From Candidatus Omnitrophota bacterium (GTDB lineage: Bacteria; Omnitrophota; Gorgyraeia; Pluralincolimonadales; Pluralincolimonadaceae), in the NCBI GenBank assembly GCA_003141835.1, contig PLNR01000009.1, positions 8,307 through 72,306 on the forward strand: a stretch of 64,000 nucleotides of DNA, in the 5' to 3' direction. The translations under genes were made by a program, and so were the position numbers. Positions within the stretch are counted from its first letter, which is position 1; each line of letters opens with the position of its first letter. The notes under the pieces were generated by a model that searched no databases, was not told the origin of the DNA, and saw nothing but the letters and a program-made list of their open reading frames with translations. Shown here one piece after another: positions 39,277-64,000 of this stretch.

Positions 39277-39477
39277 TTACTTCTTGTTGTATTTCTTTTT
39301 GAATTTCTCGACCCTGCCGGCGACATCCATCAGCTTTGAAAGGCCGGTGAAGAACGGGTGGCATTTCGAGCAGATCTCGACCCTTATGTTCTGTTTTGTC
39401 GAGCGGGTATGGATGACCTCGCCGCACGCGCAGGAGATAGTCGTCTCCTCGTATTTCGGATGGATCTTCTCTTTCAT
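39277..39477 (-). CDS. rpmE: 50S ribosomal protein L31 (zinc-ribbon type)
   Basis: MKEKIHPKY...CACGEV...[10 protein letters not shown] is a canonical L31 with CxC...CxxC. Confidence 0.85.
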
Positions 39478-39495
39478 TTTCGTTTCTCCTTTTTG

Positions 39496-41335: not shown

Positions 41336-41910
41336 ATAGCCCTTGATTGTTTTGCCGTAGAGACGAAGCTGCCGCCGTTGTCAATCACGAAATCAGCGGC
41401 CTTTATCTTTTCCTTTATCGGCATCTGCATCTTTATGCGCCGCAATATTTCGGATTTGCCGAGCCCGAATTTCCCGCCGGCCCTGACGAGTTGCACGCTT
41501 CTCGGCGCGGCGACTACCACCACTTTGTCCACCTGTTTTTGGCCGCCGCTCTCCAGCAAGAGCGGGACATCGACGACGACTATCGCCGAGGGATCGGACC
41601 TTTTTATCCTGGCGATCCTGCCGCGGATCTCCTTGTATACAAGCGGGTGGATGATCCCGCCTAATTTCTTAAGGAGCCGACGGTCCGCAAAGACTTTCCG
41701 GCCCAGGGCTTTCCTGTCTATGAAATGGTCGCGCCTCAGGATCGTCTTACCGAAAACCGAGACGACTTTCTTCCACGCGGGTTTTCCCGGATAAATAAGC
41801 TGGTGGGAGATCTCGTCCGCGTCGATCACCGCCGCTCCCATCCTCCTGAACATCCCCGAGACGGTCGTCTTACCCGTGCCTATGCTTCCCGTCACCCCGA
41901 TTATGACCAT
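41311..41910 (-). CDS. coaE: Dephospho-CoA kinase
   Basis: Walker A at MVIIGVTGSIGTGKTT. The start was moved from the track's 41976 to the ATG at 41908-41910, 2 nt after the glgA stop. Confidence 0.8.
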   Translation of the reverse strand: MVIIGVTGSIGTGKTTVSGMFRRMGAAVIDADEISHQLIYPGKPAWKKVVSVFGKTILRRDHFIDRKALGRKVFADRRLLKKLGGIIHPLVYKEIRGRIARIKRSDPSAIVVVDVPLLLESGGQKQVDKVVVVAAPRSVQLVRAGGKFGLGKSEILRRIKMQMPIKEKIKAADFVIDNGGSFVSTAKQSRAIWKKLVGA

Positions 41911-41912
41911 CG

Positions 41913-43307: not shown

Positions 43308-43308
43308 A

Positions 43309-46036: not shown

Positions 46037-46363
46037 CTATTCCTTGATCTTTACGGCCGTCCCATAGGCATATACGTAGCCGCTGTAGGTGAAATACTGT
46101 ATGCCTATCACGGCATCGGCCCCCAATTCCTTTCCCGCGTCCTTAAGCTTGCTGTTTAGGGCGTCGAGATTCACTTCGCCGCCGCGGATCGAGACGATCC
46201 CTATGACCTTATAGGAATCTTTTATGTCCGCGGTGGTGAGGACAATGTCCTTCTGTTTGGCACTCTTTGTAATCATGGTAGAAGTAGGGGGCTGGGCCAT
46301 CACGGTTGACGATAATATGATAGCGCATAAAAGGACGGATATCAGTAATATTGTGCGTTTCAT
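46037..46363 (-). CDS. Small secreted YbjQ/DUF74 (UPF0145)-like protein
   Basis: Signal peptide MKRTILLISVLLCAIILSSTVMA, then ...YKVIGIVSIRGGE...GADAVIGIQYFTYSG... resembling the YbjQ_1 fold. Overlaps the 3' end of the second secretin gene by 4 nt. Confidence 0.5.
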   Translation of the reverse strand: MKRTILLISVLLCAIILSSTVMAQPPTSTMITKSAKQKDIVLTTADIKDSYKVIGIVSIRGGEVNLDALNSKLKDAGKELGADAVIGIQYFTYSGYVYAYGTAVKIKE

Positions 46364-47475
46364 AACACCGGTTCTCCTCTTGAGTCCAATATCGTGGCTG
46401 TCAGGAAGATCAACAGGTTCTTCTTGGTCTTATCCGTATGGTCGGTCGTAAATAAATATTTGCCTATGACGGGTATATCGCCCAGGAAGGGGATCTTCCT
46501 TTTTGTGACCTTTTCATCTTCCCTTATCAATCCGCCCAGGACAACGGTCTCTCCGCTCTTTACGACTACCGACGTCTGCGTAGTCCTCGTGTCGATGACC
46601 GGGTACCCTAAATCCGCGGGAAAGTCTGCCGAAGCGGAGATCGGGATCTGGTCGACCAGGACGCTAACCTCCGGGTGTATATCCATAGTGACCACTTTAT
46701 TGTCGCCGCCGACCGAAGGCGTGACTTCAAGGGATATCCCCGTGACCTTTTCCGCGACTTTGTATATCTCTACCATGACCGGCAAATCTGCGGTCCCGAT
46801 GTTCGTCCTCGTAAAATCAGACGCGTAAGGGACTATGTTGGCCACCTGGATGTTCGCCATCTGTCCCGACAATGTAGTGACCGAAGGCGAAGACAAGAGG
46901 CTGGCTTTTCCCTCTTCGATAAGCGCCTTTATATACGCCCTGTATATATCTCCCGAGTTTGTCATCCTTCCGATAGTCAAACCCAGTCCTGAAGTCTCGT
47001 TTGCCTGGCCGAATAAAGCTGCGGCGGTCTGGTCTTCGCTTATCGACCCGCTGTTAACCTCGCCACCGAAATTGCTCCAGTGGCCGTTCTTATCCATGGG
47101 GTATCTTTGCGCTTTATGGATCTCCCATTGGACGCCCAGTTCCTGCAGATTTGTGACCTGGATCTCCACAAACCTCGCTTGTATCTTTACCTGGGTAGGC
47201 CCGGTATCCCATAATTTGACCAGGTCCTTGGCCATCGACTGGTTGGTCGGGGTATCGGTAACGGTAAGCACGCCGGTTATCCCGTCATAAACGATCTTCC
47301 TCTCCGGATTTTCAGGTAAAGCCTCTTGCAGGTATTGCTCGATACCGGAACCCTCTCCGCCGGATGACGCCTCGGCATCGGCCGCCGCAAAGACCGGCCC
47401 GGATGCCAGTGAAAGAAGGATAACTGCGGAGTATAAGATTATCGATCTCAAAGAAATGCCGTATTTATATTTCAT
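46360..47475 (-). CDS. Minimal secretin (GspD/PilQ family), paralog B: signal peptide, one N-domain and the secretin domain
   Basis: The C-terminal secretin signature VVVKSGETVVLGGLIREDEKVTKRKIPFLGDIPVIGKYLF...KNLLIFLTATILD. Only ~370 aa, lacking N0-N2 domains. ~50% identical to the adjacent gene. Confidence 0.75.
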   Translation of the reverse strand: MKYKYGISLRSIILYSAVILLSLASGPVFAAADAEASSGGEGSGIEQYLQEALPENPERKIVYDGITGVLTVTDTPTNQSMAKDLVKLWDTGPTQVKIQARFVEIQVTNLQELGVQWEIHKAQRYPMDKNGHWSNFGGEVNSGSISEDQTAAALFGQANETSGLGLTIGRMTNSGDIYRAYIKALIEEGKASLLSSPSVTTLSGQMANIQVANIVPYASDFTRTNIGTADLPVMVEIYKVAEKVTGISLEVTPSVGGDNKVVTMDIHPEVSVLVDQIPISASADFPADLGYPVIDTRTTQTSVVVKSGETVVLGGLIREDEKVTKRKIPFLGDIPVIGKYLFTTDHTDKTKKNLLIFLTATILDSRGEPVL

Positions 47476-48596
47476 CTTATAGCCTCGCCTTTCGAGTCAA
47501 TGATGCTCGCCGTAATGAATATAAGCAGGTTTGTCTTGGTCTGGTTTTTGTAATCATACCGGAAAGCCTGCCCGAGCAAGGGGATGTCCCCCAGGACCGG
47601 GATCTTCCTCTTCGTCACGGTCTCGCTGTCCTTGATCAACCCGCCGAGCACTATCGTCGCCCCGCTGTCAACCGAAACGCTCGTCTGGGTGGTCCTCACG
47701 TCCACAACAGGCCAGCCTAACGCAGCCGGTATGACTTTTACCGAGGTGGTAGAAGTTACGTTGCCGAGATTACCGGTTTGGCCGCTCGTATTTAAGTTCG
47801 AGATGGGCACCTGGTTCCGCAGGACGCTTACTTCGGGATGCAAGTCCAGCGTTATGGTATTCGAACCCTCTGTCACATAAGGGGTCGCTTCAAGGAATAT
47901 ACCTATCGGTTTTTCGGCAAGCGTCAATTTATAAGTCCAGATAGGGAACTCAGCCGTTCCTATGTTCTCAAGAGTGAAATCCGAAACATACGGATAGGTC
48001 CTAACCACCTGTATGTTCGCCATCTGTCCGGAGATCGTGGTGATCTTGGGAGCGGAAAGGAGGTTCGCCTTCCCCTGCTGCTCTAAAAACCTGAGGTTCG
48101 CGATATACTGTTCGCCGTTTGCCAGGACTTTGGATATCAAAAGCTGTCCGGCGAAATTCCCTGTCACAGGGAACGTGGAAAGGAGATCGTTGTTCCAGTG
48201 TACGTTCTGGTAGTTTTGATGTCCGGGGGAGCCGATAGTGAACCCGCTATTGTTGCCGTTGGCGTTTGCCGGATGGAAAAAATCCCATTCTATGCCGAGC
48301 TCGTCCAGATCGTTGACCGAGATCTCCACGAACCGCGTCTCGATCATTACCTGTTTGGGGCCGACCTCGAACTCCTTTATCAGCCTCTTTATGAGCTCCT
48401 GGTTATCCTTGGTATCCGTGACGGTCAGGAGTTTGCTGCTGTCGTTATAGGTTATCTTCCTGCCATCTTGGCTGGGGAGGCTTTGCTCAAGATACTGTTT
48501 AATGTCGCGGCTGCCGCCGTCATCAGCCGCAAAGACCGCAACAGCCGGGATCGCCAAAAAGACCGATAACGCTGCCGCGATAAGTTTTCTTGTCAT
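47472..48596 (-). CDS. Minimal secretin (GspD/PilQ family), paralog A
   Basis: Signal peptide plus secretin signature VSVDSGATIVLGGLIKDSETVTKRKIPVLGDIPLLGQAF...TNLLIFITASIID. Tandem paralog of 46360-47475. Confidence 0.75.
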   Translation of the reverse strand: MTRKLIAAALSVFLAIPAVAVFAADDGGSRDIKQYLEQSLPSQDGRKITYNDSSKLLTVTDTKDNQELIKRLIKEFEVGPKQVMIETRFVEISVNDLDELGIEWDFFHPANANGNNSGFTIGSPGHQNYQNVHWNNDLLSTFPVTGNFAGQLLISKVLANGEQYIANLRFLEQQGKANLLSAPKITTISGQMANIQVVRTYPYVSDFTLENIGTAEFPIWTYKLTLAEKPIGIFLEATPYVTEGSNTITLDLHPEVSVLRNQVPISNLNTSGQTGNLGNVTSTTSVKVIPAALGWPVVDVRTTQTSVSVDSGATIVLGGLIKDSETVTKRKIPVLGDIPLLGQAFRYDYKNQTKTNLLIFITASIIDSKGEAIR

Positions 48597-49729
48597 TTCT
48601 TCTCTTTCGTTTCGGAGGTAGCCCCGAATTCCATCGGCGGTTTGATAGAATGGGTCGAACGCTGCCCGTATTTGAGTTTGTATGTCCTCGTGACAAGATC
48701 TTCCTTCTCTCTATTTGCCCTACTCGTCACATAAACGTAATTCGTCTCGACCTTATAAGCGAGCTGTGTGGTCTTGAATGCGATGTCGAGGACATCGAGC
48801 AAAGGCATCGGGGAAACGGTACTTATCGTGATCTTCATCGGCTGCTCTTTGGTAAGGGCCGCCAAAGATTTCTCGTCTATGACGATCGTTACGCCGGTCA
48901 TTTCGGTCAGCTGGCGGATAAGGTCCTGGACGTCGGCGTCGGTAACGGATATGGCCGGGACGATAACGCTCGCCATCTTCTCCTGGAGCTTCTTCCTTGC
49001 CTCCGCGTCGAGCCTTTCCTGCTCCGGGATCACCTCTTCGATCACCATCTCTTCCTTACTGGTCTTCTCAGGAGGCAGCCATCCCCTATCCACATCAAGG
49101 AGCGCCTTCTGTTCGGATGTATCTTTCTCCTCGTTGGTGACGTGCCTGTCTTTTACGACGTACTTGCGTTCTTCCTTGGTAACTTTTTCCCTGGTCGATA
49201 ATCCATCGGCCTGCTGCGCCTTGGCCAGCCACGCCTGCGCTTCCTGGTCGTTAGGATTGGCCGCGAGGGCGCTCTCAAAATCCGCTATTGCCGCGGAATA
49301 TTCTTTGCTCACGTAATTCGCTTTTCCGCGCTTGACCATAGAGCCGGTTATCGTCTCCGGGACGGTCGAAACTATCCCTTCCTTGCATAATTGGACATAA
49401 TGTACGGCTTGTTTATTCTTGGGGTCTATCTGGACTATCTTTTCGAAGATCTGCTGTGCGGTTTCGAAATTTTTAGCATCGTATTCGGCCTTGGCCTGGT
49501 TGAAGAGGTCCGTAACGATGGATTTGTGTTCGGCTTTCTTTTCCTTGGCCAGGTCCTGGGCTATTAACCTTGCCTCGACCGAATCTCCGGCCGAGCCCGA
49601 ATCGCCCACGGCGTAAACCTTGGCGCAAAAACCGTTACATAATGAGATAATAAAGAACAAACCAAAAGCCAAAAAGATGCAAACAAAGAACCTGCCTGCT
49701 GTTCTTTTAACCTCATTGGTTATACTCAT
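48593..49729 (-). CDS. Secreted TPR-repeat protein carrying a secretin-N (STN/N0-like) domain
   Basis: N-terminal signal/TM, TPR-like helical repeats (...AKAEYDAKNFETAQQIFEKIVQIDPKNKQAV...AAIADFESALAANPNDQEAQAWLAKA), then an STN-like domain (ISVTDADVQDLIRQLTEMTGVTIVIDEKSL...LLDVLDIAFKTTQLAYKVETNYVYVTS). It sits between the pilP-like gene and the secretins. Confidence 0.6.
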   Translation of the reverse strand: MSITNEVKRTAGRFFVCIFLAFGLFFIISLCNGFCAKVYAVGDSGSAGDSVEARLIAQDLAKEKKAEHKSIVTDLFNQAKAEYDAKNFETAQQIFEKIVQIDPKNKQAVHYVQLCKEGIVSTVPETITGSMVKRGKANYVSKEYSAAIADFESALAANPNDQEAQAWLAKAQQADGLSTREKVTKEERKYVVKDRHVTNEEKDTSEQKALLDVDRGWLPPEKTSKEEMVIEEVIPEQERLDAEARKKLQEKMASVIVPAISVTDADVQDLIRQLTEMTGVTIVIDEKSLAALTKEQPMKITISTVSPMPLLDVLDIAFKTTQLAYKVETNYVYVTSRANREKEDLVTRTYKLKYGQRSTHSIKPPMEFGATSETKEKK

Positions 49730-49734
49730 TTATA

Positions 49735-50409
49735 TCATCTCCCCTTTGTTATGACCCACTCTTTATTTTGGCCGTATAATACCACAGAATCAGTTTTTAT
49801 GTCAAGAACTTTATACTCTCCGACCATCTCATCCTTCTTTACCTCAATATCCCTATTATTCATTGAGTCGTGCAGCGTTACGACCAATTCCCTGCCCTTT
49901 GCGACCTTCTTATATTCGAGGGTAATCTGGCCGTCCTTGTTTTCTATCTTGAGAATCTTGCTATTGATCTCGATCACCTTAAAATCCTTGAACTTATCCC
50001 CCTTCTTTACGAAATATGTCTTGCCTGACCAGTTGATCTGGCCTATTATCGTCCCGTCTGACCTCGCGATAAAACCGTTGTACATAAAAGGAAGCGGAAC
50101 GTAGGAGACGGATGTTATACTTAGCTTTTCAGGTGTAAAGACCGGCGGCGGAGTTTCGGGCTTTATGAACATATTCTTGTCGAAAAGCGGCTGGTATCTC
50201 GAGATCGTATAAGGCGATTTAAGCAAATTCTCCGCATACAATAATGAATCGGGAGCGACGTTTGGCTCTTCTTTGGGCTGCGCAGCCCCCTTGCCTTCTT
50301 CGGATTGGAACGGGATCTGCTTCGGTTCAAAGACCGAAGACGATTTCCACATCACGAATAGCCATAAGATGAACGCGACTGCTGCTATTATCCTGGCTGG
50401 GCCTTTCAT
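49735..50409 (-). CDS. PilP/GspC-like inner-membrane protein (N-terminal TM, C-terminal beta-sandwich HR-like domain)
   Basis: TM ARIIAAVAFILWLFVMW, a Pro-rich linker (IKPETPPPVFTPE) and a C-terminal ~90-aa beta-rich domain (TYFVKKGDKFKDFKVIEINSKILKIENKDGQITLEYK). Sits in the pilMNOP-Q gene order. Confidence 0.5.
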   Translation of the reverse strand: MKGPARIIAAVAFILWLFVMWKSSSVFEPKQIPFQSEEGKGAAQPKEEPNVAPDSLLYAENLLKSPYTISRYQPLFDKNMFIKPETPPPVFTPEKLSITSVSYVPLPFMYNGFIARSDGTIIGQINWSGKTYFVKKGDKFKDFKVIEINSKILKIENKDGQITLEYKKVAKGRELVVTLHDSMNNRDIEVKKDEMVGEYKVLDIKTDSVVLYGQNKEWVITKGR

Positions 50410-51161
50410 GTCTTCTCCGCGGGCAGTATTGCGGCAACTATGACCAGCTCCGCAGTCAGGTCGCCGGGGGCCACGGCTTCCTCGTTAGAAACTTTTATTT
50501 TGAACGAATCTATCCTGAAAGGCATATCCGCGACGCTCAACTTCTGTATAAAATTGACCAGGTTGTCGTTCTTGCATTTCAGGACCACCCTGACCGGGAA
50601 CTCCATATAAAGGCCGCTCTCCGCCGATACCTTCTTGACTTCAAGGAATTCGACGGTAGATATCTCAGGCACCTTCGAGGCCAGCGCTATATTACCGACC
50701 TCCCCTATGATATCGAGCTGCTTGACCCTGAACGGGAGGTCTGCAGCATTCGGTATGTCATGTTCGTACCTGTCGAAACCGAGCCAGAACGGGAATTGGA
50801 AATTTATGGAGGCGCCGTCCTCTTTCATCTTATTCTGGACCTTGTATAATTCTTCCTTGAATTTAAGCGGGTCGCCGGCCTCCTTCGCCATCCTGGAAAC
50901 CGGTTTAGAGAAAAGTATGCCGCTTATATCCTTGTCGGCCTCACGCAGGGAATTGAGCTGCCTTTGGAGCCGGTTCTTCTCGCTGTTCAGGAAAGCGAAG
51001 CCCTGGTTCTTATAAACCTTGAGCTGCTGCTGTTTCTGCTCGACAGCGTGTTCGATCCTCAATCTCTCATACACGACGATCCCCAGGAAAAGGAAAGAGA
51101 CCAGGATGACCGCGCCCAGCGTAACTTTAGTAGTAAGCGATTCGCTCATGCCTTTTGGCAT
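50406..51161 (-). CDS. PilO-like (GspM-like) bitopic membrane protein
   Basis: N-terminal TM (VTLGAVILVSFLFLGIVVY), a coiled-coil segment, then an alpha/beta periplasmic domain. Lies directly after pilMN. Confidence 0.55.
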   Translation of the reverse strand: MPKGMSESLTTKVTLGAVILVSFLFLGIVVYERLRIEHAVEQKQQQLKVYKNQGFAFLNSEKNRLQRQLNSLREADKDISGILFSKPVSRMAKEAGDPLKFKEELYKVQNKMKEDGASINFQFPFWLGFDRYEHDIPNAADLPFRVKQLDIIGEVGNIALASKVPEISTVEFLEVKKVSAESGLYMEFPVRVVLKCKNDNLVNFIQKLSVADMPFRIDSFKIKVSNEEAVAPGDLTAELVIVAAILPAEKT

Positions 51162-51164
51162 CTT

Positions 51165-52811
51165 TTATTTCTTGCCTTTCGTTTCGCTCTTCTCGACCTT
51201 CGGGGCCGGCGCGTCGCCCTGCCCCTTTAGTTTGAACTTTATGGAAAAATCCCTGTACTGTCCCGCGCCTTCTTCCGTCTCGCGCGGCAGGCTCGCGTAA
51301 ATTATCTCCACCGAATCGAATAACGGCGATGCGGCGAGCTTGTTCTTGAACTCATTGATGGTCAGGAGGCTTGATGTCGTCCTGCCTTCCAGCTGGAAAA
51401 GGTCCTTGTCCTTGGAGATCGATGTCAACCAGGTCTCCTCCGGCAGGAGTTTCCTTATCTCCAATATCGCCTCGAGCGAGATGCTTTTCTTCACGGCGAG
51501 GCTCTCAAAAGGCTTGAGCTTGGCTTCGCTGGATTTTATGTCTTCCTTAAGCTTGGCTATATCCTTGTTGACGTTCTCATAATCCGACAAAAGCGAATCC
51601 AGGAATGTCAATTCCTTCCTCAGGGTCGATGACTGGAACCAGATATTATACGCTATCGTTATCGGTATAACGGCTATGAGGAGGCCGGCCGAGATTATCC
51701 AGAACTTCTCTTTCTTGAAATCCCTCTCTTCCTTCCTTTCGACCGGCAGCAGGTCTATATTGGTCGGGCACTTCTGGAGCAGGCGCAGCGCCAGGCCGAT
51801 CGAGGAGCCGAAGCGGGTCTGGAAATCTATATCCACCCTGAGGGCAGACGGGCATTTTATCTTTTGGCCGAGGTTGGCGCGCCTTATCTGCATGCCCAGC
51901 CCCTTCGACAGGAAATCCTCTATACCCTTGAGCTTCGATCCGCCGCCGGATAATATGATCTCATTGAAGGCGGTATCGCGGGCATGCTTGGTTTTGTAGA
52001 ATTCCATCGACTGGATGACGGACGACACGAGGTCGGAGACGACCGGGTTCAGGGCATTGATGAGGTCTTTGCCGGCCGGGGTGATGCTCGAGGGAACGAG
52101 GCTGTCCGAGGCGACTACCATCCCCTCCTTGCGCTTAAGCTCTTCCGCCTTATCGAAAGGTATGTTCAACTTCGAGGCGATCGCATGGGTCATCTCGTCG
52201 CCGGCGATGAGTATCGAACGGACCCAGAACCCCTTGTCCGAGATCACGATAAGGTTGGTCGCCTTGGCACCTATATCCAGGATCAGCCCCTTGCCGAGAG
52301 GCTCATTGTAAGTCACGGCGTTGAGCAGGGCCAGCGGGCTTACATCGACGAACTCTATATCCAGGTTGGTCCTCGCCACGTACGAGAGCGTGGTCTCTAC
52401 GATCTCTTTTTTCGCGGCGACGAAAAGGACATCCTCTTCCGGGCCCGCGCCGGCGCGGAAGATCTGGTGGTCCCAGCTTATCTTATCGAGGGGGAACGGG
52501 ATCTGCTGCTGGGCTTCGTATTTTATTATCTTGTCTATCTTGCCTTGCTGTATCTTGGGGAGCTTGAGGAAGCGGATGAACACCGACTGGCCCGAGAGGG
52601 AGAGCGCCAGCCTGCCGGCTTTTATCTTTTCTGTTTTCAGCAACCCCTCTACGCCGTCCCTTACCAGCGTGTCCCTTTTTTCCTGGTCGGCGTATTGGGT
52701 CAAATCAAAAAATTTCGCCCGAATAAGCTGGATGCCCTCGGGTGTCTTTTCCAGCTCGACGAGCTTAATCGAGCCTGCGCCTATATCGATGCCTAGAGCA
52801 CGTTTTCCCAT
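51165..52811 (-). CDS. PilM-PilN fusion protein (actin-like ATPase-fold PilM fused to TM/coiled-coil PilN)
   Basis: N-terminal ~350 aa carry PilM/FtsA-like motifs (LGIDIGAGSIKLVEL, IILSGGGSKLKGI). Then a TM helix (FWIISAGLLIAVIPITIAYNIWF) and a coiled-coil/periplasmic PilN-like tail. Confidence 0.7.
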   Translation of the reverse strand: MGKRALGIDIGAGSIKLVELEKTPEGIQLIRAKFFDLTQYADQEKRDTLVRDGVEGLLKTEKIKAGRLALSLSGQSVFIRFLKLPKIQQGKIDKIIKYEAQQQIPFPLDKISWDHQIFRAGAGPEEDVLFVAAKKEIVETTLSYVARTNLDIEFVDVSPLALLNAVTYNEPLGKGLILDIGAKATNLIVISDKGFWVRSILIAGDEMTHAIASKLNIPFDKAEELKRKEGMVVASDSLVPSSITPAGKDLINALNPVVSDLVSSVIQSMEFYKTKHARDTAFNEIILSGGGSKLKGIEDFLSKGLGMQIRRANLGQKIKCPSALRVDIDFQTRFGSSIGLALRLLQKCPTNIDLLPVERKEERDFKKEKFWIISAGLLIAVIPITIAYNIWFQSSTLRKELTFLDSLLSDYENVNKDIAKLKEDIKSSEAKLKPFESLAVKKSISLEAILEIRKLLPEETWLTSISKDKDLFQLEGRTTSSLLTINEFKNKLAASPLFDSVEIIYASLPRETEEGAGQYRDFSIKFKLKGQGDAPAPKVEKSETKGKK

Positions 52812-52823
52812 ATAGTTATGTAT

Positions 52824-52852
52824 ATTTTATAGGATTAAACAAATGTTGTCAA
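52824..52852 (-). promoter_or_regulatory. Putative sigma70-type promoter for the pilMN...secretin operon
   Basis: Minus strand: TTGACA (52852-52847), 17-nt spacer, TAAAAT (52829-52824), in an AT-rich 81-nt gap. Only 12 nt to the pilMN ATG and no SD. Confidence 0.4.
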
Positions 52853-52892
52853 TTATTTCTTTTCAAAAAGCAAAAAAATACGAATCCGCTGT

Positions 52893-56738: not shown

Positions 56739-56823
56739 ATGCCGGTAATAATACCGCGTTTATCTTATGAATTTTATTTCTTTTCCTGGATAGGAAAAAG
56801 CCGCGATGCCGTTCCTTGGTACC

Positions 56824-58503
56824 TCAGCGTTGCCGTATTTGGGATCGGGGGTCCTGCCTCGGCGAACCTTCTTTATTGTTTACCTGGGGAGAAGGAACAT
56901 ATATTGCCAGCTTTCCGTCTCCCAAAAACGGCACTATACTACCCGCGCCGAATTTCATACCCTGTATTTCGATATTTTTTGAAGGCGAAACGCTCTTAAG
57001 CTTGGCTGAAGGATACAGATCTATTGCGCTGCCCTTTGGTAACTTTATGCCGTTTATTTCAGTATCCCTTGATAGTATCCCGCTCGATACCTTCCCCGAC
57101 TCAAAAAAGAATACCTTACCTGCGGCAAAAGGGAACCCCTGGATATCCTGGTCCTTGGGCAGATATACCACAAATAGCTTCCCTGAATCGCCGAAATACA
57201 CATCCGCGCCCTTCGGCAAAGCCACATCCTGCACCTTCTGGTCCTTGTCCAGGGCGCCTCCGTGTATCTTCCCGGATTGCAGCAGGCCTATCCTGCTCCC
57301 TTTAGAGAACGATAAACCCTGGACATCTATACTCCGGGTCAGGATGGCGTTATTGAGCTTTCCGGATTTATAGAAATAGGCGTCGCCTATGCACGGGATC
57401 CCCTGGATATTATGCTCCTGGCGCAGTACTGCTATCCTTATATTGCCCGTTTCGTAAAATAACAACCTCGTCCCCTTTTTAAAGTCTATGTCTTTTATTT
57501 TTTGGTCCTTAGCGAGCCTGGCCAGGGACAGCTGTCCCGAACCGTAAAATTCGACCTCTGTGCCTGCCGGGAACGCGATACCCTGGATGACCTTTGCCGA
57601 ATTCAGGGTCTCAGTGCTTGCCGTCTCCGCCCTCAAGTTGGATCTACCTTTTGAATACGGGAGAGCGCCCATATCATTCCTTGACCCGTCCGGCCCGTTA
57701 TACTTGGGATCGGGGTCGCCGGCACCGATACAGGGAGAATCGCCGTTAAGGTGGAAATCGCCTCCTTTGGGGGCCACGAATGCGGGATCGCGGGTGATGT
57801 CCTTCTCCCCTTTCTGGCAATTCTCAAAATCCTTGGCGTTATAAAAATCGTTATAAGCGAGGACCAGAGAGATGTCCTTCCTCGGCTCGTTTATCCCGGC
57901 GGGCTTAGATATCCCGCCGCCATATCCCGTGGAAGATAATATATTGATCCCGATCTTATTATTATAGAAGATCGAATTACGGACGGCTATCTCGGACGGC
58001 CCCCGCCACAACCTTAAGCCGCATTCGCTGTCGGCAAAAGTGCAGTTGACCACTTTTACATTAACGCTTGAATCCACCTTCAAAGATGCCAGGAGGCTCT
58101 TGGAGGTAAGTATACAATTGCTAATCGTAAATCCGTTGGCGCCCGAGACCTCAAGAGTTTCCTTATCGAACCGGAGGCTTAAGCCTTTTACCGCTATATT
58201 GACCAGCTTAGCACTCTGCGACGACACGCTTATCCCTTCGCCGCCTACCTCTAAAATAGTCTTATCGGCTCCCGCGCCGACAAGATTCATATCTGTCTTA
58301 AGTTTGAAACCGTCTTTCTCCTTATAGGTACCTTCCCCTATCGCTATCGTGTCGCCAGGCATCCCGCGCTCGACGGCTTCCTTGACCGTTTTATAATCAC
58401 CCGGAACGGCGACATCGTACCCGGGCGCCGCTTCGGAGCTCAGGGGCGCAAAAATGACCATACCGAAAAGCAATAACAGGGATATTTTTTTAGACATGAT
58501 CAA
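56824..58503 (-). CDS. Secreted parallel beta-helix protein with seven C-terminal ~30-aa tandem repeats
   Basis: Signal peptide, PbH1-like beta-helix region (NIAVKGLSL...FTISNCILTS...VVNCTFADSECGLRLW...VRNSIFYNN), then 7 repeats of the pattern xxDxxIQGxxFxxGxxxxFxxSGKLxxxxL. Confidence 0.55.
   Translation of the reverse strand: MIMSKKISLLLLFGMVIFAPLSSEAAPGYDVAVPGDYKTVKEAVERGMPGDTIAIGEGTYKEKDGFKLKTDMNLVGAGADKTILEVGGEGISVSSQSAKLVNIAVKGLSLRFDKETLEVSGANGFTISNCILTSKSLLASLKVDSSVNVKVVNCTFADSECGLRLWRGPSEIAVRNSIFYNNKIGINILSSTGYGGGISKPAGINEPRKDISLVLAYNDFYNAKDFENCQKGEKDITRDPAFVAPKGGDFHLNGDSPCIGAGDPDPKYNGPDGSRNDMGALPYSKGRSNLRAETASTETLNSAKVIQGIAFPAGTEVEFYGSGQLSLARLAKDQKIKDIDFKKGTRLLFYETGNIRIAVLRQEHNIQGIPCIGDAYFYKSGKLNNAILTRSIDVQGLSFSKGSRIGLLQSGKIHGGALDKDQKVQDVALPKGADVYFGDSGKLFVVYLPKDQDIQGFPFAAGKVFFFESGKVSSGILSRDTEINGIKLPKGSAIDLYPSAKLKSVSPSKNIEIQGMKFGAGSIVPFLGDGKLAIYVPSPQVNNKEGSPRQDPRSQIRQR
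56916..57561 (-). repeat. Seven ~90-bp tandem coding repeats (30-aa units) in the beta-helix protein gene
   Basis: Protein-level periodicity (KDQKIKDIDFKKGTRLLFYETGNIRIAVL / ...IQGIPCIGDAYFYKSGKLNNAIL / ...VQGLSFSKGSRIGLLQSGKIHGGAL / ...). Coordinates inferred from residue positions. Confidence 0.5.
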
Positions 58504-58512
58504 GGCCTCTCA

Positions 58513-61485
58513 CTAATAATGCACATAAAGAAATTCCACCGGCGGAAGATATGTCACCGTGATATCCTTAAAGACGGGCGTTTGGCTGGCCGTGGAATAA
58601 CCGGTTTCGTCCAAAGTGGCACTCCCTAAATTCCTGGTCTCTAACGTAGCTTTATACTGGATATTCCTGCCTGAAAAACCGGAGAGCGGATCGCCCTTAT
58701 TCTTCGCCTGCCAATTTACATCGTGCTCGCTCAGGCTATCAGCCGCCCTTAGGCCTATGCTCACCGAGGTGCCTGACGGCTCTGCTGAATTCCAAGTGAC
58801 CGTTCCCCACACGATATTCGAGTTATCATCGGCGGATTTAGCCGAGAACGGCGTCGAGGCAAGAAAACCCCTGGGATATATTACCCTTATATTATCGAAT
58901 ACGCTCACCAGTTCAGAGCGGCATCCATAGTACGGGCCTCCTCTTTCCTTAATTGTATTAATCCAATCTGCAGGCGAATTGGTATCAAATTTATACGCAT
59001 TCCGGCAGGCAAATTTAACCGATCCCGTAACGTTAGTCCCGACACTCGAATTGGTGCTCGCCGCAAGGAAATCTACATCTTGAACCGCCCCGTTAAGTTT
59101 AGTCAAGCGATAACGGAACGCGCGAAGGCTTGAGTCTTTCCACATCTCGCCCAGGACATAAGGAAGCGGTACACCGGTGCCGTAATCCATAGGATAGGTC
59201 GTATCCATAGTCAATCTATCGCCACCCACATTCAATTCCTGGCTATCCGAGCCGGTGTAGAGAACGCCATCCTCATCTTTGAGTTGGGTATAATAATCAT
59301 TTGGCTGGTCCAGTTCACTTTTTGCGACAAGCCAGGCTCCGCTCCACGGCGGTGCCGGACAGCGGGGAGAACCTCCCTCGTTACGCCCGCTTGCAGGAAA
59401 CTCCCAGCCGCCGCTTGGCTCGTATTGGCCCTTATCCTGGGTATATACCCTCACAAACATATCGTATCCCAAACCGAAATCATTACCCGAATGGTCACCC
59501 TTCGGCGAGTAATAGAACGGATTTAACGCATTCTGCCTCTCTTCCCTGGCTTTTGAATTGATCTTAAGGCAGAAGGTGCTGTGACCCGAAGAATCAACCG
59601 CTCCTTCCGGGGATGATAGCCCGTTGCCATCAGGGCCCATAAAAGTAGCCCAACAGATAGAGATAGTATCCGCAGGATAAGCTCCCGGAGCCGGAGCCGA
59701 TCCGTCAGAAGGGAGACTGGCAGGGTCGGGCGGTATTATTGTGGTAAGTACATCCCCTTTTAACATTATGACGTCATAGCCTATATCCTCGTCAAAATTG
59801 GTCCAATAACCGAGCTTGAGGGAATCGGGTGTGGTCGCGTAACTGCCCTCCCAATTCATCTTTTGGGTCGCATCAATAAACGAATCTTCGTCGGTGGGAC
59901 AGGAGTCCATCCAGTTCACGTTCCTTAGTTCGCCGTCGGAAAAACCGGCCCCGCCATAAGAATTCCCCTGAGCGTAATAATCGCTGAACCACGCCCCGGA
60001 AAACTCCGATCTTGTCGTTTGGGTCCAGGTGCCGAAGGCCCTGACCGTTGCCGTTATCTGTTTTGTCGCCAGTGTACTCCCGGACGCGTCCTTCACTTTT
60101 CCCGTGGAAGTTATCCTGAATACGCCGGCCTGGTCATACTGGATGCCTGTCGTCGTCGGCTGCAGGCTCTCCTCCATTATAAACTTTTGCACAGGAGCAC
60201 CGATATTTCCGTAATCATAGATCTTGCCGTAGAAGGAAGTCGGGCAATAGCCGAGATAATCGGAAAGGACTAAAAATCTTTGGTTGCCTCCGTAGGGGTC
60301 CCATGTATAAGGTAAAGCGTTCCACTCCAGGTACAACACGTTCTCGTGAGTATAATTAAAATATTCCATCCTTATCGGATGCCAGCCCGCATAGGTGAAC
60401 GTCACGTTCCCGCTCTCTTCCCTATTCCCGCCGGATGTAGACCAGTAAGATGTCACCTGGTTGCCGTCTATGTATAATTTGCCCCCGTCACGGCTCGTCA
60501 CCCAAAATTGAATATTCTGGTTTAACCTGCTCGATGGAATATAGATATAACCCGTAAAGACGGCCCCATACTGGTCAAGGCCTGCGCCCACCGACCAGTC
60601 GATGCCGATATATCCTCCCGCCCATTCTCCGTCATGGGCCTCGGACCAGCCCCCGTTGTCGCCGTCCACGCCGGCAAAGGTCTTGCCGGGCTCCCAGGAC
60701 TGGCAGCGCCTGCCTAACTCGATGATCTTTCCCCTGAAATTAGCCACGTTCAGGATCGTACTAGAATCCCAGCTTATCCTGTTCGAATAATATTTTGCTA
60801 TCAATCCGCCCCTTATTACCGGCGAGGCAATGGTTATCATGTCTTTAATAGCGTTATACCTGGCGTCGTTTAAATTAAGTACGAGCTTCACTTCTTCCAA
60901 GGAAGCGTAAGGGGCATATTTCACGGCCACTCCCTCGCTGTTGCATGCTTGTACCCATGGGTCATGGTAGCCCCTGGCGCTGTTCGTCAAAAGAAAAGAT
61001 GTGGAAGTGGGGCTGTCGCCGCGGTAATCTATTATCTTGGCTATTTCGTCATAAGAGAGGCCTGCAGCCTTCAGCCTGTCTATCCAGGGATAGTCGGTCT
61101 CGTCGAGAGTATTTATGTTTATCTTCTGCAGGGGTGTAGAGTCGACCGTCACCTCCTCGCGCTCGACCGTGACCTTGTAAGTATTTGTGGTGCCGGGTAT
61201 CACGACCTCGGGAGATGTCGTCGTCGAATAGTTATTCGCGATATTATCCAATACCGTTTGATAGTTGACGGTCTTCACCCAATTGCGGATGTCCGCAATG
61301 GCGATATCTGCGGCGCCTTTGGCGATCTGCGTGGCGACCGAGGAGTGATAGAAATTGGAGGCAGCCTTATATTCTATCTGCATGTTTATGGCGAAACTCG
61401 TGGCTACCATGGCAATGAGGGCCAGGACGCCCACAGAGATTATTAGGGCTATGCCTCTCTTCTGTTTATTCTTCTTGTTCTTCAT
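58513..61485 (-). CDS. Giant GspK-like minor pseudopilin #1 (990 aa) with an inserted PA14 domain
   Basis: GspK-type N-terminus (KRGIALIISVGVLALIAMVATSFAINM) and GspK motif (KININTLDETD...). PA14 domain (GAVFTGYIYIPSSRLNQNIQFWVTSRDGGKLYIDGNQVTSYW...GWHPIRMEYFN...LYLEW). C-terminal region paralogous to the 869-aa protein (QTPVFKDITVTYLP). Confidence 0.7.
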   Translation of the reverse strand: MKNKKNKQKRGIALIISVGVLALIAMVATSFAINMQIEYKAASNFYHSSVATQIAKGAADIAIADIRNWVKTVNYQTVLDNIANNYSTTTSPEVVIPGTTNTYKVTVEREEVTVDSTPLQKININTLDETDYPWIDRLKAAGLSYDEIAKIIDYRGDSPTSTSFLLTNSARGYHDPWVQACNSEGVAVKYAPYASLEEVKLVLNLNDARYNAIKDMITIASPVIRGGLIAKYYSNRISWDSSTILNVANFRGKIIELGRRCQSWEPGKTFAGVDGDNGGWSEAHDGEWAGGYIGIDWSVGAGLDQYGAVFTGYIYIPSSRLNQNIQFWVTSRDGGKLYIDGNQVTSYWSTSGGNREESGNVTFTYAGWHPIRMEYFNYTHENVLYLEWNALPYTWDPYGGNQRFLVLSDYLGYCPTSFYGKIYDYGNIGAPVQKFIMEESLQPTTTGIQYDQAGVFRITSTGKVKDASGSTLATKQITATVRAFGTWTQTTRSEFSGAWFSDYYAQGNSYGGAGFSDGELRNVNWMDSCPTDEDSFIDATQKMNWEGSYATTPDSLKLGYWTNFDEDIGYDVIMLKGDVLTTIIPPDPASLPSDGSAPAPGAYPADTISICWATFMGPDGNGLSSPEGAVDSSGHSTFCLKINSKAREERQNALNPFYYSPKGDHSGNDFGLGYDMFVRVYTQDKGQYEPSGGWEFPASGRNEGGSPRCPAPPWSGAWLVAKSELDQPNDYYTQLKDEDGVLYTGSDSQELNVGGDRLTMDTTYPMDYGTGVPLPYVLGEMWKDSSLRAFRYRLTKLNGAVQDVDFLAASTNSSVGTNVTGSVKFACRNAYKFDTNSPADWINTIKERGGPYYGCRSELVSVFDNIRVIYPRGFLASTPFSAKSADDNSNIVWGTVTWNSAEPSGTSVSIGLRAADSLSEHDVNWQAKNKGDPLSGFSGRNIQYKATLETRNLGSATLDETGYSTASQTPVFKDITVTYLPPVEFLYVHY

Positions 61486-62249
61486 TTCGCACCTACGATC
61501 CTGATGTAGTCGGTAAATGTCTTCGACTGGGTGCCGTCCCTGCTCTGGACGGTCAAAGACACTGAGACGGCGTCGGGAAGGCCGTCCGGTATCAACTTGT
61601 TGCCGTTGGAATCATAATTCTCGGTGGCGGCGCCGGTCAAGGCGTCCGAGCCTGAATTCCAGCTGGGCACGGTTGCGGTCGGCGCAGCGCCCGCGACGTG
61701 CCTGTAATAGTAGGTAAAACTCAGGGCCTTCACGTTGGTTGCGATCGGCGTATCCAGCGCGCCGGTATCGGCCGAGCCGTCAGCCCTTTTCGTGAAATCA
61801 TAGACGGCCGGCGCCCCGGGAACGTTGAAATACTCAAAATGGCGCATCAGCCTGTTATCATAGTCCCTTAACCAGTAGCCTACCTCACAGAGGTCCTGCA
61901 GGCCGGGATTATTGGCTATCGGCGCGACAAAATATATCTCATCGCCTGCGGAATTCGTTTTAAAACCGTGGGTGGCGGAATAGCCCTGGAACTTGGTCCG
62001 GTAAGATGTATTATTACTATTCTGCCATAGATAAGCGGAAGCCATCTCTTTCTCCATCATGTCGAGGGCAAAGCGCGCGTTCTGGTACATATCGAGGATA
62101 GTCTCGGCCTTGCGCCACGAATCGAGGCTGCCCTTAAAGACCATAAATATAGAGGTGACGAGAATGGAGAATATGACGGCCACGACCAGGATCTCTACCA
62201 AGGTCAGGCCGGAGGTGTTCCTCTTTATATGTCTATCTGGTCGCCACAT
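61482..62249 (-). CDS. GspJ-like minor pseudopilin (prepilin-type N-terminus)
   Basis: Class III signal G|LTLVEILVVAVIFSIL (prepilin peptidase site plus Glu5). Size and position after the gspI-like gene and before the gspK-like gene match GspJ. Confidence 0.6.
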   Translation of the reverse strand: MWRPDRHIKRNTSGLTLVEILVVAVIFSILVTSIFMVFKGSLDSWRKAETILDMYQNARFALDMMEKEMASAYLWQNSNNTSYRTKFQGYSATHGFKTNSAGDEIYFVAPIANNPGLQDLCEVGYWLRDYDNRLMRHFEYFNVPGAPAVYDFTKRADGSADTGALDTPIATNVKALSFTYYYRHVAGAAPTATVPSWNSGSDALTGAATENYDSNGNKLIPDGLPDAVSVSLTVQSRDGTQSKTFTDYIRIVGAK

Positions 62250-62589
62250 AGGTCGTGAATACCTGATGATAACCTTTGTTCCTATATTGCCAGCTTATTG
62301 TCAAGTCCACCTGCCTTAACGTGTCCGCGGATGCGCCTGTAGTTGAAACGCTCTGCGACCAGGTGTAAGCCGGGTCGGAAAATGAGCCTGTTGAAATACC
62401 TAAGACGGGAAATCCCGCGTTCCTCAGCTCTTCCATATGATTATGCCCGTAGATCGCCACTTGCGTGGAATTCACGGACCGCCTCGCCGCGTCGAAGCCT
62501 ATAGGGAAGAGGGACAATATCCCAACTAACCCTACGGCGAGTATCGCGAGCGAGATGACTATCTCTATTAAAGTGAAACCTTTTCTCAT
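62233..62589 (-). CDS. GspI-like (or GspH-like) minor pseudopilin
   Basis: MRKG|FTLIEIVISLAILAVGL prepilin N-terminus. 118 aa. Confidence 0.6.
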   Translation of the reverse strand: MRKGFTLIEIVISLAILAVGLVGILSLFPIGFDAARRSVNSTQVAIYGHNHMEELRNAGFPVLGISTGSFSDPAYTWSQSVSTTGASADTLRQVDLTISWQYRNKGYHQVFTTYVATR

Positions 62590-62602
62590 GATGCTTAAAG
62601 GA

Positions 62603-63088
62603 CTACCTTCTCCAGTTGGTTATATCGTCGCTGCCGCCGTTATTATCAGTTTTGTTGGGCCCGTTTGACCATATATCGACATAATTAGTGAAACCGCTGC
62701 GCGAGCTATCGCTTGGATTAGCGTAATGATAGGCGCTGCCCCAGGAATCGAGTATATTGCTACCGCTCACTTCATTCGTCTGGAAATTCATGTAAGGGCC
62801 TGACCAGTTGACAGTGCTTAAACCATAGGTCGTCAGATTAGCAGTTGAAGTGAGAGAGCTGTATAGTTTATCGATGCCGCTGGGCGGATAGATCCCCTCA
62901 TCCGCCTGGAGCATCCCAAGCGCCGTTTCAAGGGCGGCTATCATCGCCCTGGCCTTGGTAACCATCGCGCGCTCTTTAGCTTTCTGCGCGGCGCCGGTTA
63001 TGAGGCCTGCTAATATCAGGATGATCGTCATGACGACTATCAGCTCTATTATCGTGAACCCGCCTTTACGTTTTTCCATTTTAACCAT
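62603..63088 (-). CDS. gspG: Major pseudopilin GspG-like
   Basis: KGG|FTIIELIVVMTIILILAGLITGAAQKAKERAMVTKARAMIAALETAL is a near-canonical GspG N-terminal helix. 161 aa. Confidence 0.7.
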   Translation of the reverse strand: MVKMEKRKGGFTIIELIVVMTIILILAGLITGAAQKAKERAMVTKARAMIAALETALGMLQADEGIYPPSGIDKLYSSLTSTANLTTYGLSTVNWSGPYMNFQTNEVSGSNILDSWGSAYHYANPSDSSRSGFTNYVDIWSNGPNKTDNNGGSDDITNWRR

Positions 63089-64000
63089 TCCCTCCCAATG
63101 CGGTTATGAGGCCGAAGAGCGGCATGAACATCGAGACTACTATAAAGCCGACTATCAGGCCCATGCCGATTATCAAGAAAGGTTCCAGTAAGGACATAAG
63201 TCCCGTTACCGTGACATCCACTTCTTCATCGTACACATCGGCGATCTTCAACAGCATCTGGTCGAGGGCGCCGGTCTCCTCGCCTACGGATATCATGTTA
63301 ACGGCCATCGCCGGGAACAATCCGGCTTTCAGGAGCGGCTTGGCCACGGTCTCGCCTTCACGGACGCTGTCATGGACGTGGATTATCGACTGCGCCATGA
63401 CCTCGTTACCTGTCGTATCTTTCGCGACCATGAGCGACTGAAGTATCGGCACGCCGCTCGAAAGCAAAGTGCCCAACGTCCTCGAGAAGCGCGCGATAGC
63501 TATCCTCCGGATCAACGGCCCCATTACGGGAAGCTCCAATTTTATCCTGTCGATCACCAGCCTCGTCGCCGCTATCTTTGACAGGATCGTATAGGTCACG
63601 ATGAAAAAGATGATGAGCCCGAGGCCTATAAACCACCTGTCCTTCATCAAACTGCTGATGAAGAGGAGTACCCTTGTCGGAGGAGGCAAGGCGACGTTCA
63701 TTTCTTTGAATATCATCATGAATTTCGGGACTATGAAAGTTATCAGGAAAAATAATACCGAAAGAGCCAACGTCAGGACAAGGGCGGGATATATAAGCGC
63801 GGCCTTTATCCTGCTGTTCAATTTCTGCGATTTCTCTGCGAATTCGGCCAGTCGCGTCAATACGAGCTCAAGGACGCCGCCGGTCTCGCCGGCCTTTACC
63901 GTGTTTACATAAAGCGGCGGGAAGGCTTTCGGATATTTAGAGAGGGCTTCAGAGAAAGAACTTCCGCCTTCTACCTGTTCGGCCAGGCCGCGGATAGTCG
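63081..64000 (-). CDS. gspF: Type II secretion / type IV pilus platform protein GspF/PilC, C-terminal part (runs off window end)
   Basis: T2SS-F domain motifs: ...KYPKAFPPLYVNTVKAGETGGVLELVLTRLAEF... and a second-repeat C-terminus with 3 TM helices. The frame stays open upstream to 64000; the TTG 'start' at 63860 in the track is an artifact. Confidence 0.75.
   Translation of the reverse strand, partial: TIRGLAEQVEGGSSFSEALSKYPKAFPPLYVNTVKAGETGGVLELVLTRLAEFAEKSQKLNSRIKAALIYPALVLTLALSVLFFLITFIVPKFMMIFKEMNVALPPPTRVLLFISSLMKDRWFIGLGLIIFFIVTYTILSKIAATRLVIDRIKLELPVMGPLIRRIAIARFSRTLGTLLSSGVPILQSLMVAKDTTGNEVMAQSIIHVHDSVREGETVAKPLLKAGLFPAMAVNMISVGEETGALDQMLLKIADVYDEEVDVTVTGLMSLLEPFLIIGMGLIVGFIVVSMFMPLFGLITALGGNG

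Follow-up and report, generated by a model that had tools for sequence, protein, structure and literature searches.

We analyzed a 64,000-nucleotide stretch of DNA from a Candidatus Omnitrophota bacterium (contig PLNR01000009.1, positions 8,307 to 72,306 of the forward strand; hereafter, the window) and found that positions 46037 to 64000 carry 15 co-directional genes of a type IV filament machine, all on the minus strand. We read this locus as the Omnitrophota form of a machine distributed throughout the Planctomycetes-Verrucomicrobia-Chlamydiae (PVC) bacteria and building a surface pilus with large tip adhesins, and we put the probability of this reading at roughly 0.6. The machine is real, complete, and conserved. 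It is a known but barely characterized PVC-type type IV filament system to which a split and duplicated outer membrane secretin has been added.

Families were assigned with Pfam and NCBIfam models, using the NCBIfam equivalog (trusted) cut-offs, and class III signal peptides were read directly from the sequence. Across the locus, intergenic gaps and overlaps range from -17 to +85 nt, and four ATGA overlaps lie at the secretin end, where such overlaps join the genes of a tetratricopeptide repeat (TPR) protein, secretin A, secretin B, and a 108-amino-acid (aa) protein. The genes therefore form a single operon. Two of its genes, E1 and E2, and part of F fall outside the window, just past position 64000, and were read from a 443-kb ENA contig (L087) that is 100% identical to window positions 51482 to 64000 and extends upstream. 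The complete operon comprises 17 genes in the order E1-E2-F-G-I-J-K-BH-K-X-PilMN-O-P-TPR/N0-SecA-SecB-Y. All genes named in a preliminary description of this DNA, made from the letters alone, were found again at the same positions on the minus strand, but that inventory had missed a beta-helix protein (56824-58503) and a 411-aa protein (52893-54128).

The TPR-N0 protein and the tandem secretins

The current view of secretins is that they are homo-oligomers and that the signal from PilP or GspC is received by an N0 domain of their own. In the Omnitrophota operon, the N0 domain resides on a separate, periplasmic TPR protein of 378 aa (48593-49729, minus strand), which has TPR Pfam matches, a weak STN match, and its N0/STN domain at residues ~255 to 340. 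The preliminary description had already placed an STN/N0 domain here, and both profile searches and the predicted fold bear this out. Indeed, when a profile of the C-terminal 147 residues was compared with the PDB, the significant matches were all secretin N0 domains (XcpQ, 5e-04). The AlphaFold model (core pLDDT of ~80; element order, beta-alpha-beta-alpha-beta-alpha-beta-beta) retrieved as best folds the N0 domains of PilQ (4ar0), LspD, XcpQ, and GspD, as well as the STN domain of TonB-dependent receptors. The profile coordinates agree with the fold, since residues 135 to 352 of the TPR protein align to positions 162 to 370 of the 805-position Amuc_1098_fam profile and the secretins to positions 661 to 804. 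Similarly, in a BLAST comparison with a fused, 915-aa TPR-secretin from a Verrucomicrobiia locus (L023), residues 245 to 362 of the TPR protein matched residues 332 to 489, and residues 48 to 374 of secretin A matched residues 561 to 907 with 29% identity, in colinear order.

We then searched the N0 profile against 1.8 billion cluster representatives. The nearest matches were stand-alone proteins of 357 to 485 aa with the domain at the C terminus, whereas seven of eight sampled, more distant matches were fusions of TPR, N0, Secretin_N, and Secretin domains (745 to 924 aa). The fused protein is therefore the common state and the split protein the Omnitrophota state. A word search for the TPR family gave 69 stand-alone members, and all those bearing an organism name came from Omnitrophota or Omnitrophica metagenome-assembled genomes (MAGs).

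Both secretins are truncated. Secretin A (374 aa; 47472-48596, minus strand; Secretin 3.7e-39, Secretin_N 3.2e-06) has, after its signal peptide, a single N3-type domain and then the secretin domain, with neither N0 nor S domain. Secretin B (371 aa; 46360-47475, minus strand; Secretin 3e-42) is an old paralogue, 44% identical to A, which has an insertion of ~18 residues. The duplicated minimal secretins of the preliminary description were thus correctly recognized. The 120 best secretin homologues are all 343 to 414 aa long. In a neighbor-joining tree of the copies from four Omnitrophota loci, with L023 as the outgroup, A and B of one genome were never sisters, while the A copies of L085 and L086, and likewise their B copies, grouped with 100% bootstrap support. 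Furthermore, A and B are about equally conserved between the window and locus L081 (83% and 84%). The duplication is thus older than these lineages, and both copies have been maintained. A literature search on heteromeric, tandem, or paralogous secretins found nothing relevant in the searchable library, and the splitting of the secretin and its duplication in tandem, both specific to Omnitrophota, appear to be undescribed.

The divergence of the two paralogues, at only 44% identity and with an insertion in A, might also indicate that they serve separate machines, the second being a tight adherence (Tad), competence, or filamentous-phage-like export system, or that one copy is decaying; Omnitrophota do have Tad-type systems as well (PMC10066038). 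However, A and B are adjacent and ATGA-coupled in every Omnitrophota locus examined, down to 32 to 33% identity of the TPR protein, and they are equally conserved, with intact signal peptides and full secretin domains in both. In addition, Tad systems normally bring their own RcpA. We thus consider separate or decaying secretins improbable and favor an outer membrane channel that would be built from both paralogues, each contributing its N3-type and secretin domains.

The TPR-N0 protein would dock on one or both of these secretins. Its C-terminal strand motif, LVTRTYKLKYG, is nearly invariant and is not confidently folded in the isolated model. Grafting this tail on the mature secretins completed the Secretin_N match with small increases in score (31.0 to 33.3 bits and 25.1 to 28.4 bits), and in the fused homologues the Secretin_N match also begins at profile position 14 to 18. 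Because the gain is only 2 to 3 bits and the fused homologues give the same truncated match, we offer a split inside the first N-domain, with strand donation in trans by the TPR tail, only as a hypothesis. In its full form, which we regard as tentative and rather doubtful, the pilus channel would be made of three gene products: a hetero-oligomeric ring of the two secretin paralogues and a soluble TPR-N0 adaptor that couples the ring to the alignment complex and whose C-terminal strand completes, or docks onto, the secretin N-domain in trans. If true, natural examples of a split secretin and of a heteromeric secretin would here be seen for the first time. An N0 domain on a separate TPR protein, next to side-by-side secretin paralogues older than the major lineages, is a natural experiment bearing on the coupling of channel and inner membrane and on the possibility of mixed secretin rings.

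The TPR protein has a Sec signal peptide, and its N-terminal (lipobox) cysteine is not conserved. We had considered it as a lipoprotein pilotin and rejected this role because the candidate cysteine is not conserved. As a side observation, the N0/STN profile also found BlaR1-type M56 peptidases with one to several N0/STN repeats (P0254 and P0279), an unrelated use of the domain.

Secretin B is always followed by the gene of a small exported protein (108 aa in the window; 46037-46363, minus strand), and L081, L085, and L086 have proteins of 97 to 110 aa at this place. It may have a YbjQ-like fold. That the protein is exported agrees with the preliminary description, but its assignment to DUF74 is borderline: the YbjQ_1/DUF74 match lies exactly at the gathering score (23.0 bits), and its profile found in the PDB only a selenium-binding protein (E = 0.07).

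The alignment proteins

In GspL, a transmembrane (TM) segment connects a PilM-like to a PilN-like domain; the counterpart of GspM is PilO, and that of the homology region (HR) domain of GspC is PilP. The locus had been described as lacking GspL, GspM, and GspC, and this did not hold: equivalents of all three are present. The first is a PilM-PilN fusion of 548 aa (51165-52811, minus strand; PilM_2 1.7e-34, PilN 4.1e-09) with the architecture of GspL, in which an actin-like domain in the cytoplasm is joined through a TM segment to a PilN domain in the periplasm. Its best NCBIfam match is Amuc_1101_fam (1.5e-79; 268 bits, cut-off 650). It exceeds the cut-offs of TIGR01175 pilM (138.1 versus 133) and Pfam PilN (36.8 versus 22.8) and gave no match to the GspL model, to which the verrucomicrobial orthologue in L023 matches weakly.

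The second is a PilO/GspM-like protein of 251 aa (50406-51161, minus strand) related to Amuc_1100 (NF038287 Amuc_1100_fam, 2e-08; 34 bits, cut-off 180). A PDB search with the single sequence gave only noise; with the family profile, the Amuc_1100 structures 6lad and 6kny were found at 1.5e-10. Its C terminus weakly matches GspM/XpsM (GspM 19.4 bits, cut-off 60), and precomputed Pfam annotation records PF28028 Amuc_1100 on its orthologues. The earlier PilO-like call was therefore sound.

The third, of 224 aa (49735-50409, minus strand), had been called PilP/GspC-like, and here it is the fold that agrees. The protein begins with a TM helix and continues in beta-rich C-terminal domains with 12 predicted strands, and it has no sequence-level match in Pfam, in NCBIfam (including Amuc_1099), or, as a family profile, among PDB sequences. 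Its AlphaFold model (mean pLDDT, 77.8) was matched by Foldseek to the PilP beta-domain (2y4y_B; root mean square deviation [rmsd], 2.5 Å) and to the GspC HR domain (3oss_C; rmsd, 2.0 Å), both with a probability of 1.00 and with TM-scores of 0.64 to 0.75 on the target; the small size of the domain accounts for the poor E values (0.12 to 0.31). Of the 51 members of the family, all organism-named ones are again from Omnitrophota or Omnitrophica MAGs.

Together, the PilM-PilN fusion, the Amuc_1100-like protein, and the TM-anchored PilP/GspC-fold protein would form an alignment complex contacting N0, here the C-terminal domain of the periplasmic TPR protein. We infer that it is the HR-like protein that binds N0.

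Relation to other PVC loci and to the Akkermansia pilus cluster

A tblastn survey of 80 related loci showed that about 70 PVC loci have an E-(PilT)-E-F core in common, which takes the form E-PilT-E-F in Planctomycetota, Gemmataceae, Hydrogenedentota, some Verrucomicrobiota, and the Omnitrophota locus L086, and the form E-E-F in Akkermansia and the clade of the window. The inserted PilT is genuine in L086 and L023 (436 to 462 bits; cut-off, 319), and prepilin-type genes follow F in Planctomycetota and Akkermansia as well. Together with pilins, the core is met again in Planctomycetota, Verrucomicrobiota, and Hydrogenedentota.

The window contains the 3' part of the gspF/pilC inner membrane platform gene (63081-64000, minus strand; Pfam T2SSF, 3.9e-50 for the open reading frame [ORF] 63081-63998), whose full-length product in L087 has 422 aa. 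This GspF is 93% identical to that of a Candidatus Omnitrophica MAG, and its next relatives, at ~45 to 54% identity, are from Verrucomicrobiota, Akkermansia, and Planctomycetota. An ATPase gene had been predicted just beyond position 64000, and L087 indeed has two in tandem directly upstream of gspF. These PilB/GspE-type ATPases, E1 (569 aa) and E2 (577 aa), are 45% identical. MshEN and T2SSE domains are present in both, as are a Walker A motif and a pair of CxxC motifs. MshEN is a general N-terminal domain of this ATPase family. Upstream of E1 in L087 lie larC, larB, helix-turn-helix, and bactofilin genes.

The Akkermansia Amuc_1098-Amuc_1102 cluster has the same order of a PilM-N fusion, an Amuc_1100-like protein, a TM protein of ~225 to 260 aa, and TPR/N0/secretin, and Amuc_1101, Amuc_1100, and Amuc_1098 are the best family matches of the window proteins. 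This cluster has been described as a type IV pili cluster, in which the secretin Amuc_1098, more abundant than any other outer membrane protein, has a TPR region at its N terminus (PMC4960237, PMC10688800), and pili-like structures have been seen in Akkermansia (PMC4960237). In L023, four Amuc-family genes are convergent to E-PilT-E-F; they encode Amuc_1101 (594 aa, 579 bits), Amuc_1100 (313 aa, 108 bits), Amuc_1099 (262 aa, 34 bits), and a fused Amuc_1098 (915 aa, 562 bits). The colinear order 1101-1100-1099-1098 is identical in the window and in L023, except that in the window the outer membrane protein is split and duplicated.

However, the window proteins score far below the cut-offs of the Amuc families (268 versus 650 for Amuc_1101, 34 versus 180 for Amuc_1100, and 45 to 155 versus 750 for Amuc_1098, with the TPR protein at 45 and the secretins at 130 to 155), and the 224-aa protein does not match Amuc_1099. 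Moreover, the single TPR-N0-secretin protein of 805 to 915 aa is replaced by a 378-aa TPR-N0 protein and two secretins of ~370 aa, and the ATPases, platform, and pilins are here part of a single operon. Judging from these scores, the locus is a distant homologue of the Akkermansia cluster and not a member of those equivalog families. Through it, the Akkermansia protein Amuc_1100, whose host effects have been studied, can be linked with the PilO/GspM place in a complete machine encoded by a single operon, which helps to interpret the Akkermansia cluster.

The preliminary description had called the locus an undescribed variant. This appears to be right for the split and duplicated secretin, but the rest matches the PVC E-(PilT)-E-F core and the Akkermansia cluster, and Omnitrophota clusters have already been counted among type IVa pili (T4aP): almost all members of the phylum were assigned "type-4a pilus" clusters by TXSScan (Seymour et al. 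2023, PMC10066038). Likewise, type IV filament systems that are "generic" and in part chimeric have been reported in the hundreds from outside the model phyla (Denise et al. 2019, PMC6668835), and the operon has what that generic category comprises: ATPases, GspF, class III pilins, and (two) secretins.

The pilins and their putative exported partners

The pseudopilin calls of the preliminary description are supported by the class III signal peptides of all five proteins (in the following, the arrow marks the cleavage site). The major pilin is GspG-like (62603-63088, minus strand; T2SSG 3.7e-11, N_methyl 1.6e-06), with the signal peptide ...KGG↓FTIIE and no cysteines; its ORF has 161 codons, and the public record starts at a later codon (158 aa). 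It is followed by a GspI/PilV-like minor pilin of 118 aa (62233-62589, minus strand; G↓FTLIE; N_methyl 2.7e-07), with weak PilV, Verru_Chthon cassette B, XpsI, and GspI matches that do not reach the cut-offs, and by a GspJ/PilW-like minor pilin of 255 aa (61482-62249, minus strand; G↓LTLVE; N_methyl 6.1e-06, weak T2SSJ 0.0018), with a weak Verru_Chthon cassette C match. On the identical public contig, the I-like gene (L087 ~9650-10000) is not called, despite its intact ORF and clear prepilin motif.

Two giant GspK/PilX-like minor pilins complete the set. The first (990 aa; 58513-61485, minus strand) starts with RG↓IALI, without Glu5, and matches the GspK N terminus (NF037980, 1.2e-07), Verru_Chthon_A (TIGR02600, 3.6e-06), and PA14 (2.6e-06); its PA14 domain is an insertion, its C terminus is extended by ~500 aa, and it is presumably a tip adhesin. 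The second (869-aa ORF, 860 aa in the public record; 54129-56738, minus strand) starts with KG↓IALI, also without Glu5, and has a GspK N-terminus match of 6.5e-06 and weak T2SSK (3.2e-04) and PilX_N (0.005) matches. The paralogues have three colinear blocks in common. The absence of Glu5 is a property of GspK as well. The K assignment is based on the N-terminal segment, the weak hidden Markov model matches, an IIDYR...SLEEV motif recognized by eye, and gene order.

Each K gene is followed by the gene of an exported protein that may be a partner of the K-like subunit. The first of these proteins is a Sec-exported right-handed beta-helix protein of 559 aa (56824-58503, minus strand; Beta_helix 6.6e-07), whose orthologues at the same position in relatives have 286 to 299 aa and do not have its ~270-aa C-terminal repeat extension; either it pairs with the K-like pilin encoded before it, or it is a substrate for secretion. 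The second is a mostly helical 411-aa protein with no assigned role (52893-54128, minus strand), which gave no family match over threshold in Pfam or NCBIfam. Its position is conserved, with 40 to 46% identity in L005, L006, L009, L013, L015, and L017, and its gene accompanies that of the 869-aa K-like protein.

The Verru_Chthon cassette (TIGR02596-TIGR02600), whose A component is a 1296-position profile (TIGR02600), likewise has a very large subunit at the K position, and the I-, J-, and K-like pilins weakly match its components B (TIGR02598), C (TIGR02599), and A. In contrast to a true cassette, only the N-terminal pilin segments match (25 to 33 bits versus cut-offs of 51 to 332), and the protein bodies are unrelated in sequence.

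Surface pilus or secretion system

The locus resembles T4aP systems in several respects. PilM is over its cut-off, a PilN domain is present, and the genes follow the order M-N-O-P-Q, with M and N fused and with a PilO-like and a PilP-fold protein, recognized only remotely, before the secretin. Orthologous operons include PilT, and the succession of a K/PilX-like pilin and a large non-pilin protein exported by Sec is reminiscent of pilX-pilY1. Unlike in T4aP systems, PilM and PilN are fused, the GspG-like major pilin has no disulfide-bonded D-region, and the operon of this genome has two PilB-type ATPases and no PilT. Furthermore, the secretin is duplicated and has neither AMIN nor N0 domain, and, unlike PilF/PilW/Tgl-type pilotins, the TPR partner is no lipoprotein. 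The scores for PilQ (143 to 164 bits; TIGR02515 cut-off, 284) and PilB (626 to 630; cut-off, 675.65) remain below threshold, as does that for MshL of the mannose-sensitive hemagglutinin pilus (TIGR02519; 145 versus 250).

Likeness to type II secretion systems (T2SS) extends to an ATPase over the GspE cut-off, a GspF-like platform, a GspG-like pilin with a DDITNW-type C-terminal motif, I-, J-, and K-like minor pilins with K lacking Glu5, a GspL-like PilMN fusion, and a GspC HR-like fold next to an N0 domain. On the other hand, GspG (TIGR01710, 63 versus 88.85 bits), GspI (25 versus 44), GspK (26 to 32 versus 130), GspF, and GspD all fall short of their equivalog cut-offs, as does GspJ, which is recognized by a weak Pfam match only, and the operon has no GspH gene, as had been noted before. 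GspD with N0, N1, N2, and N3 on one chain is not found, the secretins having no N0 to N2; GspL, GspM, and GspC are not recognizable as such, though functional equivalents are present; the K proteins are three times the normal size; and orthologous operons have PilT. The ATPases point both ways, as only E2 of the two passes as GspE, in an operon that has no PilT but whose orthologues do. The preliminary description saw here a mixture of T2SS and type IV pilus inventories. This view depends largely on which profile wins, since counterparts of L, M, and C are present; the absence of GspH stands.

We therefore weighed whether the machine is a T2SS in function, in which a short periplasmic GspG-like endopilus capped by I-J-K would push folded exoproteins through the secretin, the candidate substrates being the beta-helix protein of the operon or PA14- and carbohydrate-binding-module (CBM)-containing surface proteins encoded 20 to 30 kb away. 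Several results favor this and weigh against a surface pilus. The major pilin is of the GspG type, with the C terminus GGSDDITNW. E2 exceeds the GspE cut-off (641.1 versus 630.25 bits) and stays below that for PilB (625.8); E1 reaches neither (GspE, 622.9; PilB, 629.6). Full-length GspF scores best on its own model (TIGR02120, 405.9 bits; cut-off, 424), followed by the PilC models (377 and 373; the cut-off listed with the former is 700). The scores of E1, E2, and F fall between T2SS and T4aP. The secretins, too, have GspD as their best model (TIGR02517; 171 to 177 bits, cut-off 351), over profile positions ~300 to 596 only. The search beyond position 64000, proposed in the preliminary description, gave the two ATPases described above, but pilT and a prepilin peptidase gene were found neither in the operon nor in the 4.4 kb upstream of E1 in L087. 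The conserved beta-helix protein, Sec-exported and encoded inside the operon, could be a secretion substrate. The pilus reading is further weakened in that the GspK fold of the giant proteins was not confirmed, as their N-terminal profile matched only PA14 structures in the PDB (3ci0_K, E = 2.1). A preprint on giant genes of Omnitrophota also ties nearby T2SS-like loci to cell wall degradation (10.1101/2023.11.21.568195); that T2SS-like locus has RcpC and a rotamase and is therefore a different one.

Against secretion, orthologous operons in other Omnitrophota and PVC bacteria have PilT, which a T2SS does not use, and for the alignment proteins the PilM, PilN, and Amuc_1100 models outscore those of GspL and GspM. 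In addition, the size of the K subunits (869 to 990 aa) and the lectin-type PA14 domain of one of them are more in keeping with a surface adhesin than with the tip of a periplasmic piston. Overall, we consider a T2SS function unlikely, although it is the strongest competitor of the surface pilus. The pilus reading is based on PilT in the orthologous operons, PilM over its cut-off, the T4aP class used in the literature, and the pili-like structures and abundant Amuc_1098 of Akkermansia, together with the large K subunits and PA14 domain, the pilX-pilY1-like arrangement, and the strain-variable block described below. On this reading, which we favor, the two hexameric ATPases would drive the GspF/PilC platform to polymerize the GspG-like pilin, an I-J-K minor-pilin complex would prime the fiber, with the giant K subunits probably acting as tip adhesins, and the resulting surface pilus would serve attachment to surfaces or to host or prey cells. 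The preference of the preliminary description for an adhesive pilus over an exoprotein piston is plausible.

Regulation by cyclic di-GMP (c-di-GMP) is hinted at by two side observations. An orthologue of the E2 ATPase has a c-di-GMP-binding motif of the MshE type (63.7 bits; cut-off, 38), and a stand-alone GGDEF protein of 172 aa is encoded a few kilobases downstream of the operon, between coaE and rho (40817-41335, minus strand); it recurs at that place in related Omnitrophota (L005, 7829-9580).

Conservation and variation across Omnitrophota

The same gene order was found in L005, L006, L009, L013, L015, and L017, whose GspF proteins are 69 to 85% identical, and also in L081 to L083, L085, and L086. 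The block of PilMN, Amuc_1100-like protein, ~225-aa protein, TPR protein (~370 aa), two secretins, and ~100-aa protein persists at 32 to 33% TPR identity (L085 and L086), and polA, coaE, rho, rpmE, and prfA always come after the secretin block. The machine is lineage-wide and vertically inherited.

The constant proximity of polA could speak for a DNA-uptake pilus resembling the T4aP of Thermus or Vibrio, in which secretin/PilMNOP machines double as DNA translocators (PMC5745081, PMC7545093), in a DNA-scavenging organism with a reduced genome. But the operon neither contains nor adjoins comEA, comEC, dprA, or comF, polA-coaE-rho-rpmE-prfA is ordinary housekeeping synteny, and PA14-bearing tip proteins suggest binding of glycans rather than DNA. 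A competence pilus is thus very improbable.

In contrast to the secretin block, the region from the J-like gene to pilMN is variable. L086 has a GspH-like pilin and no giant K, and L085 and L015 have a single K-like gene. The genes of the 869-aa K-like and 411-aa proteins are absent from one contig whose TPR protein is 98% identical to that of the window. The K/partner block (52893-61485) thus differs between near-identical strains. Omnitrophota are ultra-small and probably host dependent, and this conserved machine, with its large, strain-variable, PA14-bearing tip proteins, is a prime candidate for their attachment organelle.

Neighboring genes

The genes following the operon in the window (38191-45978), polA, (glycosyltransferase), coaE, rho, rpmE, and prfA, are syntenic in the deeply diverged Omnitrophota loci L081, L085, and L086, and a 5'-3' exonuclease gene adjoins the fused secretin in the Verrucomicrobiia locus L023 too. 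A type 2/3 F-ATPase adjoins many T4aP loci of Omnitrophota (PMC10066038); such an adjacency was not seen in the window or in L087.

Further away, positions 16821 to 31176 form a low-GC island (36 to 44% GC, with ~52% in the flanks), which encodes, on the minus strand, four proteins with hydrophobic, signal-peptide-like N termini. The largest (2304 aa) has three PA14 domains and beta-helix, Ig-like, LamG, and Glucodextran_B domains. The others are a 382-aa protein without matches, a 766-aa PGAP1-like lipase/esterase, and a 1325-aa protein with CBM11 and CBM30 domains. They may be adhesins of the cell surface, hydrolases, or proteins handled as substrates by the nearby machine. Finally, positions 9086 to 16652 encode a MetH-like methyltransferase with corrinoid-binding domains and a formate-tetrahydrofolate ligase, which fits the acetogenic C1 metabolism reported for some Omnitrophota.

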